Notes: generated by a model not told the origin, from the sequence alone. A DNA stretch of 64,000 bases from Anaerohalosphaeraceae bacterium (GCA_050309605.1 JBNRMN010000090.1:15383-79382); one strand, 5' to 3'; counted from the stretch's first letter, positions 58,244-64,000 are shown. Made by a program: numbers and translations.

Positions 58244-58352
58244 CGCTCTTGAAACAATGTGCACGGCATCGGGATCAATAAAGAGCAAGAACAAGCCCCG
58301 GGCACCGGCGGATTGAGCCGCCGGTCAAACACGGGAGAAAGGTGTGTGTGCC

Positions 58353-60743
58353 ATGAAAAGACAGAGCCGACGAATCCATTGGATCGGATGGGTGGGACTG
58401 CCGGCATTGGTGCTGTTGATCGGTGCAGCGGGAGCTGACCGCCGCGCCGAACGGGCTGCGAGTGAACGCGCTGCGCCGCGTGCGCAACGGGCGGAATCTG
58501 CTCCGGTGGCACGGGCTGCGCCGAGCCGACCGGAAAGTCGGGCCGCCCCGTCGGCGCGTCCTGCACCTGCCGCCCCAACACGACCAGCGCCGACGGCAAC
58601 CCGTCCCGAAAGAACGTCCAGGCCTGCACCTCAGGCCTCTGCGCCGACCTCCGGCGCGGCGACGGCTGCACGTCAGCCTTCCTCTCGTCTCAGTTTGAGT
58701 GTCTCCTCGTCCGGCGCGACAGCCTCCACGTCAGCGAGCCGTTCTGCACGAACATCGCGATCGTCGTTTATCTTTTCACGACCGATCGAACGCACGGTCA
58801 TCAGTGCTTCGCCGCGACCTTCGATCACGACGCAGCCGTCTGCGTCGGCTCAGGCGGATCGCAGCAGTCTTGCCCAGCGCTCCATCTCGGCGCGCGACAG
58901 AGCCGTAACGACCATTCGCCGCGACGCAGCACCGACGGCATCGACTGCGGATCGCCCCGACGTTCCGACACGAAGTACCGCTGTCCAAGGGCGTGTCTCG
59001 GAGCGGGTCAGCCGCGACAGTGTGGTCGAGTCGTTGGGCGGCGGATCACCTGCCGGATCGACCGCGGTTGCGGCGTCGCAACGAACTACATCGGCCCGTC
59101 CCGACGGCTTTACATTTTACGGCTCGGCCTGGTATGAGCGCGACCGGGCCTCAAACGAACCCGCTGCTGAGCGCAGCCGGGCCGCTGCAACACTGCGGGA
59201 ACGAACGGTTGAGCCGATTCGCGTCCGCACCGAGGACATTCAGGCGCGTCCGGAGCGAATCACGGCCGATCAAATCCGTCAGCGAGCCGAGCGAACGGCT
59301 GAGCGGTCCGATGCGGCCCCGCACGACAGTGCCGCCTCGCTGGATTCGGCCCGATCCGCGGAAGTCCGTTCGCCCAGCAGCGACGGCGGACGAACGGTCT
59401 GGCCGCGCGTTGAGCGGATGATTTCTCCGGATGACGCCGGCACGGCGGCCTCGACCGCCTCGGCCGACAGACGTTCTGCGCTGGGTCGTACCGAAAGAAC
59501 CGCCGACCTGCGGCAGAGTGTGCGTCCGTCAGCCCGCGACCAGCACGACCGCAGCGCCGGCGGCTCCGATGAGAGGATTAGTACGGCCGCAGCACCGAGT
59601 CGAACCGCTGAGGATCGCTCGACGTTCCGCCGCGACAGTTCCGACCGCGACAGCGTGCGGGCCGCTTCCGCCGAGGCGTCTGCGACCTATACGCGCCCGC
59701 CGCGCGAGCCGTCCAGCCGAATCGTCATCAACGGCGATAACAATGTCATCGTGCAGGGCGATGTCACGGTTCAGCAGACGCGGCCCTACATCCCGCCGCG
59801 CCGGATCACGAGCATCGGCTTTGTCCACACCAGCCCCTATTGGGTTTCGTACGGCAGCGGGTTTGTGTTCCGCTGGTCGAGCCGAAGCTGCGGCGTGGTG
59901 GCGGTGGTGCCGTTTTATGATTACTACGGCGTGACCTATTACTATCCGCGTTATCACCGCCGGTTTGTGTTCGTCAGCCTGGGCGGCTACTGGCCGAGCT
60001 ATCGGTACGTGCGGTACTACTGGTACGGGGCGCATCCCTATTATTGGTACGGCCCGACCGTGCTGACTACGCCGACGGTGCACAATACGTATAATACCTA
60101 CAACACGTACAACACCTACACGACGACGCCGACGACCGGTGCGGCCTCGACCGTCTATTCGACCGAGGGCGATTATCACTTCGACCCGGCGGTGGACGAT
60201 TTCAGTGATGTGCGTGCGCGGCTGGCCGCTGAACAAGACGCGGTGGATGTGCCGTACTTTGAGACCGCGGCGGATTTGAGCTTTGCCCATGCGGTCAAAC
60301 TGTTTGAGGCGGGCAACTACGATGACGCCGCCAGGCAGTTTGCCGAGGCGATGCTGTTGTCGCCGGACGATTCGATTTTACCGTTTACCTATGCCCAGGC
60401 CTTGTTTGCCAAAGGCGATTATGTCGCCGCGGCCGAGGTACTGCGAGCGGCCATGGCCCGCATTCCGGTCGAAGAGCCGACGGTCTATTATCCGCGCGGC
60501 TTGTATGACGAGGATCAAAGGCTGGCCGAGCAGGTTGCCGCGCTGGAAACGGCGCTGGCCGCCGAGCCGGACAACGCCGATTACCATCTGCTGCTGGGGT
60601 ATCACTATGCGGCGCTGGGCGAGTATGACAAGGCGACGATTCTGCTGAATCAGGCCGCCGCTGATGAGGCCAACCTTGACGCGGTCGCCAAGCTGCTCGA
60701 GCTGATCGACCGGCTGCAAAGCGCCCAGGCGGATGTACTGTAA
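58353..60743 (+). CDS. large exported protein: Ala/Arg/Ser low-complexity region, Tyr-rich segment, C-terminal TPRs
   Basis: Signal-like N-terminus; F.AGNYDDA..QF..A...SPDD and YHLLLGYHY..LGEY TPRs; (NTY)x4 at 60084-60119. Confidence 0.75.
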   Translation: MKRQSRRIHWIGWVGLPALVLLIGAAGADRRAERAASERAAPRAQRAESAPVARAAPSRPESRAAPSARPAPAAPTRPAPTATRPERTSRPAPQASAPTSGAATAARQPSSRLSLSVSSSGATASTSASRSARTSRSSFIFSRPIERTVISASPRPSITTQPSASAQADRSSLAQRSISARDRAVTTIRRDAAPTASTADRPDVPTRSTAVQGRVSERVSRDSVVESLGGGSPAGSTAVAASQRTTSARPDGFTFYGSAWYERDRASNEPAAERSRAAATLRERTVEPIRVRTEDIQARPERITADQIRQRAERTAERSDAAPHDSAASLDSARSAEVRSPSSDGGRTVWPRVERMISPDDAGTAASTASADRRSALGRTERTADLRQSVRPSARDQHDRSAGGSDERISTAAAPSRTAEDRSTFRRDSSDRDSVRAASAEASATYTRPPREPSSRIVINGDNNVIVQGDVTVQQTRPYIPPRRITSIGFVHTSPYWVSYGSGFVFRWSSRSCGVVAVVPFYDYYGVTYYYPRYHRRFVFVSLGGYWPSYRYVRYYWYGAHPYYWYGPTVLTTPTVHNTYNTYNTYNTYTTTPTTGAASTVYSTEGDYHFDPAVDDFSDVRARLAAEQDAVDVPYFETAADLSFAHAVKLFEAGNYDDAARQFAEAMLLSPDDSILPFTYAQALFAKGDYVAAAEVLRAAMARIPVEEPTVYYPRGLYDEDQRLAEQVAALETALAAEPDNADYHLLLGYHYAALGEYDKATILLNQAAADEANLDAVAKLLELIDRLQSAQADVL

Positions 60744-60823
60744 ACAACCCCACGGCGCGGGACGAACCGAGGTATTCGTTCCGCGCTGTTTTTGTTTTTT
60801 CGCCCTCGGGTCAGAGGCTGTGT

Positions 60824-61456
60824 TTACGTGCTCTCCAGCGGGGGCACGGGGAAATCCTCTTGGCTGTTGGCGATGGCGCGGCCAAGCCACGCGATGGTTT
60901 GGCCGAGATGAGTCATATTGCGCATCGCTTCCTCGTCATTCTGTGCTTCGCCTTTGTTTAGGCCGAATCCCATATTCCAGTAAACAGACCCGGGCACAAT
61001 CATGGACGACATCAGGAACATATGGTTGATGGTGTCGAAAGCATGTGTCGCCCCGCCGCGCCGAACGGCCACGACGGCGGCTCCGATTTTGCCCTGAAGT
61101 AATCCGCCGTTGGCCAGTGCGACCAGGCCTGTCCGGTCCAGCAGGGCCTTCATCTCGGCGGTCGTGTCGGAAAAGTACGTCGGTGTTCCAAGGATGACGG
61201 CATCGGCGGCGAAAATGGCCTCCAGAAACTCGTTCATGGGGTCCTGTTCGATGACGCATCGCTTGTTCTTGCGATCGAAACACTGGTAACAGGCCGTACA
61301 GCCCCTGACCATACGGCCGCCGATCTGAAGCGTTTGACAGTTCCATCCGGCGGCCTTGAGCGGTTCAAGGACTTGATTGAGCAGGATGTCCGTGTTTCCG
61401 CCCTGTCGGGGGCTGCCGTTGATCGCAATCGCTGTCAAGGGGCTTTGTCTGGTCAT
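60824..61456 (-). CDS. iron-sulfur flavoprotein (flavodoxin family)
   Basis: INGSPR.GGNT, CTACYQC-x7-C, GTPTYF, RRGG. Confidence 0.92.
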   Translation of the reverse strand: MTRQSPLTAIAINGSPRQGGNTDILLNQVLEPLKAAGWNCQTLQIGGRMVRGCTACYQCFDRKNKRCVIEQDPMNEFLEAIFAADAVILGTPTYFSDTTAEMKALLDRTGLVALANGGLLQGKIGAAVVAVRRGGATHAFDTINHMFLMSSMIVPGSVYWNMGFGLNKGEAQNDEEAMRNMTHLGQTIAWLGRAIANSQEDFPVPPLEST

Positions 61457-61579
61457 GGCATCTCCAATCAAATTATCTAAAGCGGACGAATCGTTAACCG
61501 TTACTGAATCGCATTATAAACATCCGCGTTCAAAATGCCAGCATTCTTTTGCTGCAGCTGCTCGTGCCGATCGGACAAA

Positions 61580-61679
61580 CGGCACCCACAAGCTATCGCT
61601 TGAAGGTGCCACCCGTTTTTGATTGTCGATTGATTATTGGCTATTGATTATTAGTCAGCCTTAAAGAGGCCACCCGTCG
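61580..61679. repeat. 100-bp direct repeat copy 1 (REP hairpin + GATTATT-like spacer + 30-bp motif)
   Basis: Identical to 62775-62874 by direct comparison. Confidence 0.95.
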
Positions 61680-61683
61680 ATAT

Positions 61684-62067
61684 TTATTTTGCTATCTGTG
61701 TTACGACCCACATAATCACGATTCCAATACAAGCCGCAATATTCTGATACATTGACAGGGATAAAAGCGCAACAGGCCCCCAAGGATAGAAATTAGTATC
61801 GAATACGATGGGAACAGTCATGGTGATTCCACCAAGGGTCACAATCAGTGTTGTTGCCAAAAGAATAATTCTGCTTATCAAAAAATCCGGGACATGCTTG
61901 TTAGCGAACGCAAGAATGATATAAGGAGTAATATTCCAAACAAATAATGCAAACACCAAGTACCCATCCTTAGTGCTTCCCGTGGTACTAATGATATAGG
62001 CCCCGATGCCCTCGACAACAATCCCCAAAACAAGAAGATACAAAATTGCTCTGCAAATAGCTTTCAT
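61684..62067 (-). CDS. AT-rich four-TM hypothetical protein
   Basis: 127 aa with four hydrophobic segments; stop lies 4 nt from the 30-bp motif. Confidence 0.7.
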   Translation of the reverse strand: MKAICRAILYLLVLGIVVEGIGAYIISTTGSTKDGYLVFALFVWNITPYIILAFANKHVPDFLISRIILLATTLIVTLGGITMTVPIVFDTNFYPWGPVALLSLSMYQNIAACIGIVIMWVVTQIAK

Positions 62068-62116
62068 TCAAGGTTCCCGATAAGTATTTGTCTTCCAAAT
62101 TCGATTTGGGCTGATT

Positions 62117-62155
62117 CGGGTGGCACCTTCAAGCGATAGCTTGTGGGTGCCGGGC
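62117..62155 (+). repeat. REP element (inverted copy)
   Basis: CGGGTGGCACCTTCAAGCGATAGCTTGTGGGTGCCGGGC is the exact reverse complement of 62772-62810; internal hairpin GGCACC..CAAGC-GATA-GCTTG..GGTGCC. Confidence 0.92.
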
Positions 62156-62184
62156 GGTGGTGTGGCGTTCATTGTACGTCTCCC

Positions 62185-62757
62185 TTATCGTCTTGGAAAA
62201 TGGTTCAGACAAATGTCCAGCGGGCCGTCGCCCTGGCCGTGCATCTGCCGATAGCTGGAATAATACCACTGTTGCGGCCATTGCACAAGGCCCCGTTTGA
62301 CGGGGTTGGCGTGGATGTACCGGACGCAGCGGATGGCTGCCGAATGGGTAAAGATGTTGCGATCATAGCCGCCGCCGTCCTGCCAGAATCGCAGCGTTTG
62401 GTGTTTTTGTCCGGTTTTCAGACGTTCCAGCACGTCCGGACGGCGCTGCCGCAGCCGGTTGATCGCCCTGCGGCTGACGCTTTGCTTGATGCTTTTGAGA
62501 ATCGCCGAGATCGAATAGACCTCCTGTGTCGGATAAATCAGCAAATGCAGGTGTTCGGGCATGAACACATACGCCCATACGTCAAAGCGGTGTGTGTGCT
62601 GAGCCGCCCGGACAGCCTCGGCCAGATAGTCGCAAAACGTCGGATTCTTCAGCAGCGGCAGTCGGCGAAAACAGCTAAACGTTAATTCGTGCCCGTGGCC
62701 GGGTACATTGTACCGTTTGCATCGCTTTTCGAATCTGCCGGTGTCATTCAACTCCAT
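62185..62757 (-). mobile_element. rayT: REP-associated tyrosine transposase (RAYT/TnpA-REP, Y1 HUH)
   Basis: H.LTFSC..R, AYVFMPEHLHLL (HUH), FWQ...YDRNI, YIHANPVKRGLV..P..W.YSS; flanked by inverted REPs. Confidence 0.93.
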
Positions 62758-62774
62758 ACGCCCTGCTCACAGCC

Positions 62775-62874
62775 CGGCACCCACAAGCTATCGCTTGAAG
62801 GTGCCACCCGTTTTTGATTGTCGATTGATTATTGGCTATTGATTATTAGTCAGCCTTAAAGAGGCCACCCGTCG
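62775..62874. repeat. 100-bp direct repeat copy 2
   Basis: Identical to 61580-61679. Confidence 0.95.
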
Positions 62875-63066
62875 TTTCTGAAGTTTTTGCTTGCGTTTCT
62901 TCACGATTTTGGCTATCCTTGGCTTCACTCGAAATGACTCCTTTCGTTCCTTTTTTGAATTAAAGGGTTAAATCAATGAGTGCATTATACTGCACTGAAA
63001 GGGGCATTTCGAGTACTCTTGTGAATTTTCAAGTCATTTTTCTATTCTGGGTACGCTTGTTTAAGG
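62875..63066 (-). mobile_element. possible left-end remnant of an IS (IS1380-like)
   Basis: Begins CCTTAAACAAGCG; contains TATAAT, an AAGGAG RBS and GTG 62928 encoding MKPRIAKIVKKRKQKLQKR, which runs into the repeat. Family assignment is from recollection only. Confidence 0.45.
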
Positions 63067-63096
63067 ATTAGTCAGCCTTAAAGAGGCCACCCGTCG
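63067..63096. repeat. third copy of 30-bp motif
   Basis: ATTAGTCAGCCTTAAAGAGGCCACCCGTCG, identical to 61650-61679 and 62845-62874. Confidence 0.95.
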
Positions 63097-63130
63097 TTGT
63101 CCGGGCATTGAGAAAGAGATATAATAATAT

Positions 63131-63844
63131 TCAGTAATCTATCTCTGCAAGGTTTAGTTTGACTCGTGAGAGACAAGGATACTTCTTCATAAGTATAGAA
63201 AATTCTTCGCTATGTGAAAGCACTTGTATTGCTTCGGCCATTGCAATTTTTCTAAGTTCGTCCCTGTTTTTTTTGCGAGAAGAACTGTTGCATTTTTTAG
63301 GAATGCATTCAGGGTGTTCTACGGCGTCAATTTTAGCATCATCAATTGGCAAGGGATAAGTTAAAACAAGGTCATAAATAGAATCACCCTTCCTGCAATA
63401 ATTTTTATTTATTTCTCCAAAATAAGATGTGGGCTTGACACGTCGATATCTGTTACTTTTGTGTTCAAAAAGCGGAATCTTGGATTCGTATTGAACAAAG
63501 AAATATCTTTCGCGCTCATCTTTTCGCCGAAAGACCATAAATGTTCTTCCATCTAAAACCGAAATGGGCAATTTAATCAGAAAAGGACCGTAGTGATTTT
63601 TATGAGAAAAATCATTCAAACCACACCATACCCCAGGAACAGAGATTTTGCCATATTGAGGATGATTCAGCGACCATTCGCTTCTAAGCGATAATTGTTT
63701 TTCATCAATTATCTTTTTCAATTCTTTGAGATGGCATGCATGATAAAGAGAGACGCTTAACTTTGAGGACAGCGTCTTATCCCACGTAAAATATCCTCTG
63801 AAATCTTTAGTGTCAAATGCTCTTTTATAGTTAGGTTCGGTCAT
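63131..63844 (-). CDS. AT-rich hypothetical protein with ART-fold-like LYH...YGP motifs
   Basis: LYHACH..EL.KII....L, GVWCG, YGPFLIKL; AAGGTGAG RBS. Confidence 0.65.
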   Translation of the reverse strand: MTEPNYKRAFDTKDFRGYFTWDKTLSSKLSVSLYHACHLKELKKIIDEKQLSLRSEWSLNHPQYGKISVPGVWCGLNDFSHKNHYGPFLIKLPISVLDGRTFMVFRRKDERERYFFVQYESKIPLFEHKSNRYRRVKPTSYFGEINKNYCRKGDSIYDLVLTYPLPIDDAKIDAVEHPECIPKKCNSSSRKKNRDELRKIAMAEAIQVLSHSEEFSILMKKYPCLSRVKLNLAEIDY

Positions 63845-63874
63845 TTTGGCTCACCTTGTCGATATAATAATAAC

Positions 63875-64000
63875 GTAAGATTTTAGCCATTTGAAGCAGT
63901 GAACTCTTTCAATGCCGGCAGCTGGCCGGTTTTGAGATAGATTTTCAGCGCCTCTTTTACTGTATTCACGGGGTTTAATCCGCGTTGTTTGAGCGTAAAA
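63875..64000 (-). mobile_element. tnpC: IS66-family element, right end with transposase C-terminus
   Basis: Manual translation of 63999-63883 gives FTLKQRGLNPVNTVKEALKIYLKTGQLPALKEFTASNG*; the element ends in TTAC (GTAA at 63875), the IS66 terminal signature. Confidence 0.75.

Follow-up and report, generated by a model that had tools for sequence, protein, structure and literature searches.

Why do unrelated sequences end at one and the same short motif around a single transposase gene? The question arises at positions 61580-63844 of the window, by which we mean the whole stretch of 64,000 nucleotides analyzed here. A first-pass annotation of the sequence described a RAYT locus laid out like a cassette array, with AT-rich segments each ending at an identical 30-bp motif, and proposed that the RAYT may capture or shuffle passenger genes in the manner of an integron. 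RAYT (TnpA-REP) genes were reportedly described by Ton-Hoang in 2012 as flanked by REPs, in arrangements named REPtrons; what cells gain from RAYTs and REPs, and why rayT genes persist for so long, is an open question. The genome that carries the locus (G000) is metagenome assembled and fragmented (97 contigs, 99.7% complete), and the locus lies at a contig end. Here, we show how the locus is built, describe its repeat family and its two insertion sequences (ISs), document how it differs between species and that its ancestry is mosaic, and infer what cuts and joins DNA at the junctions. We read the locus as a REPtron bearing long composite repeats, the ends of which serve as breakpoints of recombination.

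Anatomy of the locus

That the locus carries a RAYT was confirmed. rayT (62185-62757, minus strand) encodes a 190-aa REP-associated tyrosine transposase that scored 98.7 bits against NF047646 (cutoff, 80) and 30.4 against PF01797 (cutoff, 23), compared with 22.8 against the IS200 equivalog (cutoff, 55). Its translation reads EHLH, RFWQ, and RYIHANP, all conserved in the related genomes G002 and G006; the RAYT signatures tabulated in the excerpt of PMC6006769 consulted here are HUH, WQ, and the catalytic-tyrosine YIHxNP. The gene is single copy (one tblastn match in the genome) and is flanked by inverted arms (43 nt, 98% complementarity). It is intact and, with a dN/dS of 0.22 to 0.28 against G002 and G006, under purifying selection. 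On the host side, a gene for an NADPH-dependent FMN reductase (60824-61471, minus strand; PF03358, 1.8e-28) has orthologues in G002 (75.6% over 213 aa) and G006 (88.9%, residues 99-215 only) and anchors synteny with both genomes, which share the order unit-rayT-inverted REP-FMN reductase. The minus-strand gene order given by the first-pass annotation was likewise as claimed.

The 30-bp motif is present in three mismatch-free copies, all on the minus strand (61650-61679, 62845-62874, and 63067-63096), as had been noticed; a match to the 30-mer was obtained in none of 100 shuffles of the sequence. Copies of a 36-nt REP lie at 61580-61615 and 62775-62810 on the minus strand and, inverted, at 62117-62152. 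Genome-wide (3.4 Mb, 97 contigs), the window holds the sole copies of the motif (up to 5 mismatches) and of the REP (up to 7 mismatches). The motif had been taken for an independent 30-bp site. It is instead the 5′ end ("head") of a composite unit of about 100 nt, made of head, AT-rich spacer, and REP hairpin, and thus the tagged outer terminus of a dispersed REP-containing repeat belonging to the single-copy RAYT. Since the motif is the terminus of such a repeat, unrelated flanks are to be expected, as for any repeat of this kind. Its length of 30 reflects an IS insertion point, which sets the cut: the third motif copy (63067-63096) is an exact copy of the head, the first 30 nt of a unit cut at nucleotide 30 by an IS1380-family element.

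The unit opens with CGAC-GGGTGGCC, continues through a spacer of 10-bp AATARTCAAT-like repeats, and closes with a GGGT-tagged REP hairpin. Unit 1 (62775-62874, minus strand) is the left long repeat of the REPtron, with its head at 62845-62874, spacer at 62811-62844, and REP at 62775-62810. Unit 3 (61580-61679, minus strand) is its perfect copy, and its REP end abuts the host flank before the FMN-reductase gene; together they form a perfect 100-bp direct repeat that opens with two of the three motif copies. The inverted right repeat of the REPtron (62086-62152, plus strand) consists of a REP with the GGGT tag and a 31-nt spacer variant, 36 nt of it being 100% complementary to the REP at 61580-61615. 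It lacks the 19-nt head core, and the segment with the second cargo gene starts there instead. The same REP and spacer variant recur at G000:C71:39986-40076, followed by an inverted head.

Folding against shuffles gave a significant REP hairpin (z = −5.3). The small hairpin that had been ascribed to the motif itself (GCCT-CTTTA-AGGC) did not stand up: it was not significant (z = −1.6, with 14 of 200 shuffles folding equally well) and is not conserved across the unit family. The tetranucleotide left unpaired 5′ of the REP stem is GGGT rather than GTAG; a CGTC does occur in the complement of the head (ACCCGTCG), but the plain REPs of the family lack it. As read from the sequence, no T-run typical of terminators follows the REP, and no Rfam family matched 60500-64000 at an E value of ≤1.

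The 192-bp segment at 62875-63066 (minus strand), earlier called an IS-like stub, is truly an IS start, of an element that we take from its Pfam domain (DDE transposase group 1_4) to belong to the IS1380 family. A copy in G003, whose first part it matches at 80% identity, encodes a 511-aa transposase (PF13701, 6.5e-27, 94.3 bits against a cutoff of 34.7), and homology starts at stub nucleotide 1 in G003, G059, G034, and G051. The stub comprises the left end, a promoter-like region, and the first 19 transposase codons, and it ends exactly at the terminus of the next unit. Its left terminus, CCTTAAACAAGCG, directly follows motif copy 1 here and CTAGT in two other genomes; left termini of this type abut CTAAT or CTAGT in three genomes. 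At the window's end, 63875-64000 (minus strand) is not cargo but the right end of an IS66-family element, consisting of a terminal inverted repeat and the last 38 transposase codons. The whole element measures 1.55 kb (G000:C73:2-1554), its transposase matches PF03050 (1.1e-38, 133.7 bits), and its ends share 24 nt at 96%. An 8-bp target duplication, GTTATTAT, lies at 63867-63874, and the same 8 bp are found beside the other IS end, which closes C71; the element and its duplication link contigs C71 and C90. The same ~125 bp of IS66 closes 15 other contig ends, and the contig stops at the window's end because this multicopy element lies there.

Two genes make up the cargo. The first (63131-63844, minus strand; GC, 0.37) encodes a 237-aa protein of a conserved family, with H35 and H38 invariant, that matched no Pfam, NCBIfam, or PADLOC family. 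Among its 45 homologues, the nonidentical ones are 38 to 62% identical to it, and the record titles of the 16 loci with homologues span about eight phyla; neither a RAYT nor a unit was found in the neighborhoods of these loci. Its structure model (pLDDT, 88) had Tpt1 and DarT as best structural matches, weak at Z scores of 5.8 to 4.8, and a Foldseek search against the PDB returned nothing at an E value of ≤0.001; the model suggests that the protein may have an ADP-ribosyltransferase-like fold. Sites resembling attC were seen by eye downstream at three of the homologue loci, and a stringent search for attC core motifs returned one candidate, at 1 of the 16 loci; we make no claim for these sites. 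The second cargo gene (61684-62067, minus strand; GC, 0.41) encodes a 127-aa protein with four predicted membrane helices (4-TM) and stops 4 nt short of the head of unit 3. Its product likewise matched no Pfam, NCBIfam, or PADLOC family, and a search of 5.8 billion cluster representatives returned a single homologue, at 84% identity. Across 13 cargo ORFs, PADLOC assigned no family and Pfam gave two matches above cutoff (LEA_2 and DUF7674). No pair among 19 collected cargo ORFs matched in an all-versus-all BLASTP comparison at an E value of ≤0.001, and hence no cassette was seen twice.

The unit family and the turnover of adjoining genes

Units are spread at low copy number through one genus. 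The window's own genome has diverged 100-nt copies (74 to 85% identity) on contigs C53 (two), C73, and C71 and partial copies on C46, C23, C2, and C1. About 6 of its units are full, and unit-family matches at an E value of ≤0.001 number 12 on 9 contigs, a low count for a REP family. The two window units are 100% identical, compared with 74 to 85% for the other units of the genome; the perfect direct repeat is young. Units orthologous to unit 1 in G002, G003, G004, and G006 are 82 to 97% identical. Full-length 100-nt matches were obtained in all seven genomes of the genus; other genera match the REP part only, and 15 of 61 genomes gave any match. A relative from another genus, whose RAYT is 56% identical, carries plain GGGT-tagged REPs without the head. 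A metagenome scan with an 18-mer of the head returned 39 loci, of which nhmmer confirmed real units in 14, the remaining 25 being apparently due to chance; apart from three new loci (L102, L115, and L134), those with real units were mostly the G003 and G006 loci over again, so that the scan added little. The same 18-mer had no match in viral contigs.

Orthologues and units from one and the same array are among the copies counted, so the following statistics overstate independence: among 24 full copies in seven species of the genus, 18 start with CGAC and the upstream flanks are mutually unrelated; head-side DNA is AT-rich in 18 of 25 units, with a mean GC content of 0.408 on the head side versus 0.505 on the REP side and a lower value on the head side in 20 of 25; and a low-GC ORF in the same direction precedes 12 of the 31 copies that bear a head. 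This asymmetry between head side and REP side is not predicted by plain homology. Pseudomonas REPs avoid regions of atypical composition, according to the portion of PMC3390384 consulted. Five gene pockets are bracketed by inverted units with their tags facing inward. Small AT-rich pockets, which mostly hold one gene and vary in content between species, have units at their borders.

The expectation that cargo would vary across relatives was borne out. Upstream of the conserved unit-rayT block, five congeners have five unrelated sequences without mutual similarity, and neither the 237-aa gene nor the 4-TM gene was found in any of 60 relatives. At the orthologous position, neither G002 nor G006 has the 4-TM gene. 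Downstream of rayT, G002 has no cargo: precisely at the place taken in G000 by the 4-TM gene and its two inverted REPs, it has one untagged REP; in G006 another membrane ORF replaces FMN-reductase codons 1 to 98, and G003 and G004 are different again. The junction GGTGCC|GTTTGTCC at the host flank of unit 3 is the same in G002. Between G006 and G002, the REPtron tract is 97.1% identical and its flanks 80%, with the tract bounded by the unit and the inverted REP; as these identities show, the REPtron itself has been exchanged between species.

Two further sites differ between G000 and G006. On C53, the gene is kept and a unit plus 170 bp on its REP side has been gained or lost, with the break at the head terminus, after CG. 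On C73, G000 has 44 bp, a unit, and about 40 bp where G006 has about 15 bp between 95%-identical flanks; the ~44 and ~40 bp of extra DNA rule out clean insertion of a unit at this one site and fit neither clean transposition nor simple exchange. Units stay with the host side and do not travel with the gene. The coincidence of unit ends with gene borders that differ between species hints at repeat-guided gene swapping.

We also examined the junctions in public sequencing runs. Contigs of run X1 cover every window junction, including those from stub to head 1 and from head 1 to the 237-aa gene, and contigs of three other runs read on into the IS gene past 62873. In the runs, the 4-TM gene is deeper than its flanks, with a second variant and another 5′ context. 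One X1 contig joins rayT at about codon 51 to a head terminus (28 letters on one side, flagged as weak by the tool), and X1 depth is 33.8 over 62605-62801, 16.4 in the flank, and 11.5 within rayT. We discarded a 927-bp deletion as the source of this joint, because the depths fit a 268-bp tandem duplication better. Joint and depths suggest such a duplication, missing from the assembly or variable between strains; the junction of a circle would be indistinguishable from it. In runs X4, X9, and X10, parts of the window lack contig coverage, from which we draw no conclusion. The stub-unit junction reads ...AAACG|ACGGG, and the intact IS reads ...AAACG|GCTGG, an overlap of 2 bp (CG). Homologous exchange leaves unexplained unit termini fused to unrelated DNA with only this overlap. 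The IS stub and the X1 joint between rayT and head are two such junctions.

Explanations for the shared junction

Our preferred reading, to which we give about an even chance, is that REPtron units serve as shared homologies and break points and that the pockets turn over by recombination. The RAYT would make and spread the units, and the units, as shared 100-bp homologies and hairpin-forming break points, would drive pocket turnover: congener DNA taken up by the cell would recombine at them, and inverted or direct units would give rise to deletions and duplications. At the stub, an IS1380-family element cut one unit at nucleotide 30, and a later deletion would have removed most of the IS, ending exactly at the terminus of the next unit. 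A two-step model, with a unit inserting into the IS and a homologous deletion leaving a solo head, was replaced by this single deletion, both being events that we infer. The fixed junction would then be the mere end of homology, not a dedicated capture site. No donor with the window's cargo between units was found.

A tentative alternative, possible but rather doubtful in our judgment, is active capture. The RAYT would nick single-stranded DNA at the CG|AC-GGGT unit end and stay 5′ bound, and any free 3′-OH would resolve the link, whether supplied by foreign DNA entering the cell, by a nascent strand, or by a second nick made behind a further CG; unrelated DNA would in this way be fused to a fixed junction. 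Repeated events would yield gene-plus-unit arrays, tandem duplications, and deletions ending at unit termini, and single-gene pockets would be filled, duplicated, and emptied. The claim that unrelated sequences are fused to the motif at one fixed position is supported, and with the X1 rayT fragment there are four of them (the 237-aa gene, the IS stub, and the 4-TM gene being the others); yet unrelated flanks occur at the end of any repeat, the X1 joint is a single weak contig, the left border of the 4-TM segment does not lie at a head terminus, and no cargo gene was seen at two places. Two of the four junctions share the CG overlap, and unbroken targets read CG|GCT; a contig of run X4, from another study, adds a different sequence at the 61679 boundary, the C53 difference also breaks at a head terminus after CG, and truncated heads directly precede whole units at three other loci. 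The AT-rich head side, the low-GC ORFs before heads, and cargo absent from relatives also agree with capture. In the excerpt of PMC8266576 consulted, TnpA-REP cuts beside REPs in vitro and the 3′-OH of an added oligonucleotide joins the cut 5′ end, but by our reading the guide rule given there would predict A|C for a GGGT tag, whereas the observed joints are G|A. The integrity of the enzyme and the selection on it favor capture; however, G003, the genome with the most units, has a broken cognate rayT, and no RAYT was found in G001 or G005.

We think it unlikely that the repeats are bystanders, REP-type elements that settle 3′ of genes or in AT-rich DNA as RNA or terminator elements, while AT-rich genes would come and go by unrelated routes and the shared borders would be a by-product. 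REPs do lie mostly just downstream of coding regions (PMC3733652, in the part consulted), and units are also found after genes of ordinary GC content, such as one of 401 codons on C73 and one of 763 codons in G003. Several sit within nests of other short repeats, and others are part of RHS-like arrays, in which variable, AT-rich modules are to be expected anyway, the RHS matches being weak (E values of 0.005 to 0.009). An AT-targeting element, however, should show AT-rich DNA on both sides rather than on the head side only, the REP lacks a terminator-like T-run, and unit termini are exactly where structural differences, among species as well as among samples, have their breaks.

An assembly artifact, in which the assembler chained strain variants through the repeat and so created motif copies or their order, is very improbable. 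The locus does end a contig of a fragmented metagenome-assembled genome, the 100-bp repeat exceeds the assembly words of the public contigs, and the 268-bp duplication suggested by run X1 would be missing or strain variable. Against this, the IS66 element explains the contig end, the X1 contigs span every junction, the order from unit to FMN reductase is the same in G002 and G006, and independent metagenome contigs contain the unit arrays of G003 and G006, identically flanked. To an integron-like system, in which each gene would travel with its unit as attC and a site-specific recombinase would insert it, we give next to no credence: co-oriented ORF-plus-unit arrays do exist in the window, at G000:C46, and at G003:C37, but the unit stays with rayT while the gene before it changes (five congeners), the C53 gene was kept while its unit varied, no attC-type core sites were seen by eye in the unit, and no integron integrase was found, the best of 8 TIGR02249 matches reaching 92.3 bits against a cutoff of 265, with similar subthreshold matches in 14 of 14 control genomes.

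The family is small and tractable, with about six units per genome, one intact enzyme under purifying selection, and relatives whose enzymes are broken or missing. It makes one idea testable, the transfer of a strand of arbitrary DNA to the tagged end of a repeat, and the same chemistry has already been shown in vitro for other RAYTs (PMC8266576, in excerpt). If this idea were true, the locus would be a platform on which a "domesticated" HUH enzyme captures genes, and RAYT-REP systems would gain a selectable function. Should it fail, the locus remains a record of a composite REP unit from a planctomycete-like lineage and of the exchange of a whole REPtron between species.

Relation to known repeat systems

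In Neisseria, minimal mobile elements and intergenic mosaic repeats hold genes between conserved borders that are swapped by homologous recombination, and short dispersed repeats cluster at the exchangeable islands of naturally transformable bacteria. Here too, different genes lie between the same conserved borders; unlike those islands, the borders are cognate repeats of a resident HUH enzyme, and some junctions lack homology. Integron cassettes resemble the pockets in being small, promoter-poor, unrelated, and mostly uncharacterized genes closely followed by a structured repeat, sometimes in co-oriented arrays, with content that varies between relatives. They differ in that no IntI was found here, the repeat stays put, attC cores were not seen by eye, and the chemistry of a Y1 HUH enzyme, which would act on single strands, would be a different one. 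With IS200/IS605 elements and their miniature derivatives, the locus shares a related Y1 enzyme family (the PF01797 match), a subterminal hairpin with a guide-like tetranucleotide on the 5′ side of its base, ends that are strand specific, and a short conserved CG before the left end in most unit copies; in contrast to them, the hairpin is at one end only, the repeats around rayT are inverted rather than direct, and the C73 polymorphism (one site) is not a clean insertion.

REPtrons and TIRtrons, as described in the parts of PMC3733652 and PMC6006769 consulted, likewise have a single-copy HUH-Y1 gene (EHLH, WQ, YIHANP) between inverted cognate hairpin repeats. According to the excerpt of Di Nocera 2013 (PMC3733652), RAYT genes may be flanked by composite long inverted repeats of degenerate REPs and other stem-loops, there are dispersed families of composite repeats, and DNA can be inserted between the partners of a REP dimer. 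The flanking repeats here are similarly long and composite, made of a degenerate tagged REP plus other sequence, and form a moderate dispersed family as in P. putida, P. fluorescens, and S. maltophilia. In the GTAG/CGTC REP superfamilies of the same excerpt, an unpaired GTAG or CGTC stands at one end of the palindrome. The present system departs from these descriptions in its tag (GGGT, not GTAG), in its small family (about 6 full units), in units that stand singly or bracket a gene rather than forming short dimers, and in tagged ends that coincide with the borders of species-variable AT-rich genes. We found no mention of this last feature in the excerpted REPtron literature, and the word "passenger" does not occur in the consulted text of PMC6006769.

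REPINs are inverted REP doublets mobilized by RAYTs (Bertels and Rainey, PMC3116915 and PMC3337134, in excerpt). As in REPINs, the inverted REP pairs here are cognate to one vertically kept RAYT, and the five inward-tagged pockets amount to doublets with a very long spacer; unlike in REPINs, that spacer is a whole gene of 360 to 820 bp and only the 36-nt REPs can pair. Among the unit-family matches in the window's own genome, there was no short empty REP doublet; in G017, from another genus, REP doublets about 11 nt apart do exist.

Anatomy of the locus and identity of the motif

Read on the minus strand, the locus opens at the contig end with the end of an IS66-family element (64000 to 63875) and its 8-bp target duplication (63874 to 63867), followed by the 237-aa gene (63844 to 63131; GC 0.37), motif copy 1 (63096 to 63067), a 192-bp stub (63066 to 62875), and unit 1 (62874 to 62775), which comprises motif copy 2, a 34-nt spacer, and a 36-nt REP. 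Next come rayT (62757 to 62185), an inverted REP with a 31-nt spacer variant (62152 to 62086), a gene for a 127-aa four-helix membrane protein (62067 to 61684; GC 0.41), unit 3 with motif copy 3, spacer, and REP (61679 to 61580), and an FMN-reductase gene (61471 to 60824). GC is ~0.55 to 0.60 in rayT and the reductase gene versus 0.35 to 0.42 in the two cargo genes. As the first-pass annotation reported, all three 30-mers are identical (0 of 100 shuffles matched), and units 1 and 3 form a perfect 100-bp direct repeat. Further copies were absent from the 3.4-Mb, 97-contig assembly at up to five mismatches in the motif and seven in the REP. Elsewhere in the window, a 799-aa ORF (58344 to 60743) has a long low-complexity first half rich in Ser, Ala, Arg, and Thr, then a Tyr-rich stretch and a putative helical, TPR-like end.

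The 190-aa product of rayT scored 98.7 bits against the NCBIfam RAYT equivalog (cut-off, 80) and failed the IS200 equivalog. It carries EHLH, WQ, and YIHANP, signatures that PMC6006769 tabulates for TnpA-REP-like subclasses. The gene is single copy in the window's genome (G000). Orthologues with 93 to 94% identity (dN/dS 0.22 to 0.28) occupy the same place in the congeners G002 and G006, and those of G003 and G004 are broken by internal deletions and lie in other surroundings. Searches of G001 (95% complete) and G005 (76% complete) gave no RAYT, though both hold units.

The 100-nt unit matched 15 of 61 related genomes searched; full-length matches were confined to the seven genomes of the window's genus, and other genera showed the REP part only. 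Elsewhere in G000, diverged whole units lie on contigs C53 (two), C73, and C71, and partial units on C46 (two, head and spacer), C23, C2, and C1. Among 24 whole copies from G000 and 15 fetched loci, 18 start with CGAC and the remainder with CGGC, GGAC, CAAC, or GGCC; the sequence 5′ of the start is unrelated from copy to copy. The consensus reads CGACGGGTGGCCTCTGCAA, then 40 to 50 nt of AATARTCAAT-like 10-bp repeats, then (A)CGGGT-GGCACCTTCAAGC-loop-GCTTGTGGGTGCC(G). Because head and REP both carry ACGGGTGGC, the unit may have arisen from a tagged REP by duplication of the tag and the first bases of the stem on either side of an AT-rich insert. The REP hairpin folds far better than shuffled sequences (z = −5.3); the small 4-bp hairpin previously ascribed to the motif itself does not (z = −1.6) and is missing from most family members. 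In a relative from another genus (RAYT 56% identical), plain GGGT-tagged REPs flank the gene without a head. No Rfam family matches the repeat region.

We conclude that the motif is the end of a longer composite repeat belonging to a locus of the REPtron/TIRtron type, in which a single rayT lies between inverted cognate repeats; the anatomy of the window locus agrees with REPtrons and TIRtrons that have composite long inverted repeats. As described in PMC3733652, degenerate REPs joined to other stem-loops flank RAYT genes, such composite repeats form dispersed families, and DNA is found inserted between dimer partners. One unit in G003 (G003:C90:7796-10296; loci L018 and L091) sits with other short repeats in an 860-bp intergenic nest, where G001 has only 66 bp; a ~40-nt repeat of this nest recurs at more than 12 places in G003 with 95 to 100% identity.

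Insertion sequences and AT-rich genes at unit borders

The window closes with 126 bases from the right end of a 1,553-bp IS66-family element, a complete copy of which lies at G000:C73:2-1554 (transposase match to PF03050, 1e-38). This right end closes 15 other contigs (16 with the window's contig, C90) at 99 to 100% identity. The opposite end closes nine further contig ends, C71 among them, or 10 contigs in the overall tally, which comes to about 25. The multicopy element seems to be the main cause of breakage into 97 contigs in an assembly that is 99.7% complete. On C71 lie a ComM-like gene and a small-gene pair, which in G006 come before the unit, and the duplication GTTATTAT is present on both C71 and C90; the two contigs therefore adjoin. 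The small overlapping genes (C71:39378-39858; 81 and 85 to 86 aa), which we take to be a candidate DUF4160/DUF2442-type pair, lie just upstream of the locus and are kept in G006. With IS66 removed, the 237-aa gene stands between two repeats: an inverted unit on C71 (REP, spacer variant, and inverted head) 70 bp upstream and motif copy 1 34 bp downstream.

The description of the stub as IS-like proved correct: it is the first 192 bp of an IS1380-family element, 80% identical to a G003 copy encoding a 511-aa transposase (PF13701, 6.5e-27). Homology starts at stub nucleotide 1 in four genomes, and the flank before the terminus is CTAGT in two of the four and CTAAT in the window; the insertion site therefore lay inside a unit, which accounts for the motif length of 30. 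The far end of the stub is not an IS end. It breaks at ...CAGAAACG, followed by ACGGGTGGCC, the start of unit 1, where the intact element (the G003 copy and contigs of three metagenome runs) reads on into GCTGGCC.

AT-rich sequence lies preferentially on the head side of units. Among 25 whole units flanked on each side by 150 nt or more, mean GC was 0.408 in the 300 nt before the head versus 0.505 behind the REP. The head side was lower in 20 of the 25 (Wilcoxon P = 0.0005) and had a GC of 0.42 or less in 18, versus 7% of random G000 windows; these statistics overstate independence because orthologous copies and copies sharing an array were counted. Twelve of 31 head-bearing copies stand behind a co-directional ORF (57 aa or longer; GC no higher than 0.42) whose end falls anywhere from 10 nt inside the head to 77 nt before it; seven follow other ORFs (three of only 43 to 46 aa), and 12 have no ORF before them. 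The 19 ORFs lack mutual similarity. Five pockets, comprising both window genes and one each on G003:C40, G003:C37, and G003:C20, are bracketed by inverted units or REPs with tags toward the gene. Units terminate AT-rich modules that come after fragments with weak RHS signatures (E = 0.005 to 0.009) on G000:C46 and, it seems, on G003:C37. C46 is an 11.5-kb contig whose GC alternates between 0.30 to 0.38 and 0.50 to 0.66; within G000:C46:4500-9000 (L027), weak-RHS fragments precede AT-rich ORFs, behind which stand unit heads that lack a REP; the arrangement looks like an array of orphan toxin-immunity-like modules.

Searches of 60 relatives from the same order recovered neither window cargo gene. 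The membrane protein has one homologue, 84% identical. Homologues of the 237-aa protein number 45; the nonidentical ones are 38 to 62% identical, and 33 positions are invariant, including H35, C37, H38, H177, C180, and C185. By record titles, 16 loci with its gene spread over about eight phyla (Planctomycetota, Desulfobacterota, Nitrospirota, Poribacteria, Binatia, Hydrogenedentota, Chloroflexota, and a proteobacterium); the gene is often below its neighbors in GC. The best structural matches to its confident model (pLDDT 88) are weak ones to ADP-ribosyltransferase folds: Tpt1 (Z = 5.8, rmsd 3.6, 108 aligned) and DarT (Z = 5.3, 5.3, 5.0, and 4.8), all below the advised trust level.

Species differences and readings of gene turnover

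The locus differs among congeners. In G002 the order is unit, rayT, one untagged REP, and, immediately after it, the flank GTTTGTCC... found behind unit 3 of the window, without the membrane gene or a second unit. In G006 the order is unit, rayT, tagged inverted REP, and a different, unrelated 125-aa membrane ORF, which is fused to codon 99 of the FMN-reductase gene (L011 8789-9492, G006:C13) and replaces codons 1 to 98, so the reductase is probably dead there. Behind the inverted REP of G004 stands ACCCGTCG, which is complementary to the start of the head. The 300 nt upstream of the rayT-proximal unit (206 nt in G004) show no mutual similarity among five species (E ≤ 0.01). On C53, G006 retains a LEA_2-domain gene and lacks one unit plus 170 bp on its REP side, the break between G000 and G006 falling at the head terminus; the C73 unit is specific to G000 and came with additional flanking bases, ~44 on one side and ~40 on the other.

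REPtron anatomy settles the identity of the motif but not the coincidence of unit ends with foreign-gene borders. We give an even chance to a reading in which homologous and hairpin-driven recombination at units would bring about gene turnover; the mosaic structure of the REPtron, the lone hybrid REP of G002, and the perfect repeat within the locus argue for it. With window positions 62117 to 62874 as reference, G006 (L011, G006:C13) and G002 (L013, G002:C99; rayT dS 0.065) share 97.1% identity over the tract that runs from within the unit to the inverted REP, versus 80% in the flanks; a whole REPtron has thus moved between species at the same locus. This exchange is direct evidence of recombination with congener DNA. 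Between G000 and G006 the tract is 91.9% identical and the flanks 89 to 93%.

That the RAYT itself captures genes by acting at the unit terminus is a tentative proposal that we consider rather unlikely. Homology-free joints at CG|AC, the AT bias on the head side, and truncated heads before whole units are consistent with it, as is the in vitro joining by other RAYTs of a cut REP to an added 3′-OH oligonucleotide, described in PMC8266576. However, the tag-as-guide rule in that paper, as read here, predicts a different cut, one pocket border lies off the terminus, the unit-richest species has a broken cognate gene, and no gene-unit pair was seen twice. Among the papers listed in library searches on RAYT/REPIN cargo and REP gene cassettes, none describes RAYT gene capture. 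That the repeats are mere bystanders is improbable, and an artefact or a true cassette system, taken jointly, very improbable; the earlier likening to an integron without a tyrosine integrase fails on the integron's defining points.

The locus in metagenomic communities

Parts of the stretch were present in 20 runs from 13 studies; since all of the data are assembled contigs, they inform on presence alone. Contigs of run X1 span each window junction. In X4, X9, and X10 the stub runs on into its transposase gene. One X4 contig extends up to the head terminus at 61679, beyond which it passes into other sequence, and on the rayT side X4 and X9 contigs diverge at 62777, the REP 3′ end.

A joint between 62605, which lies inside rayT, and a head terminus, with a CG overlap, is present in one X1 contig (depth 18.1); it is a weak joint with 28 letters on its short side. 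We considered a deletion, but the X1 depths (33.8 over 62605 to 62801, 16.4 in the flank, and 11.5 over the rest of rayT) fit better with a 268-bp tandem repeat of the unit plus rayT codons 1 to 51; a circle junction would look alike.

The membrane gene region (61684 to 62143) shows several-fold the depth of the surrounding genome in X1 and X4 (in X4, 55 to 89 over the gene versus 2 to 10 in the flanks). A second variant of the gene exists, and in three runs it has another 5′ context. The gene therefore also lives elsewhere in these communities, possibly in a more abundant organism or element.
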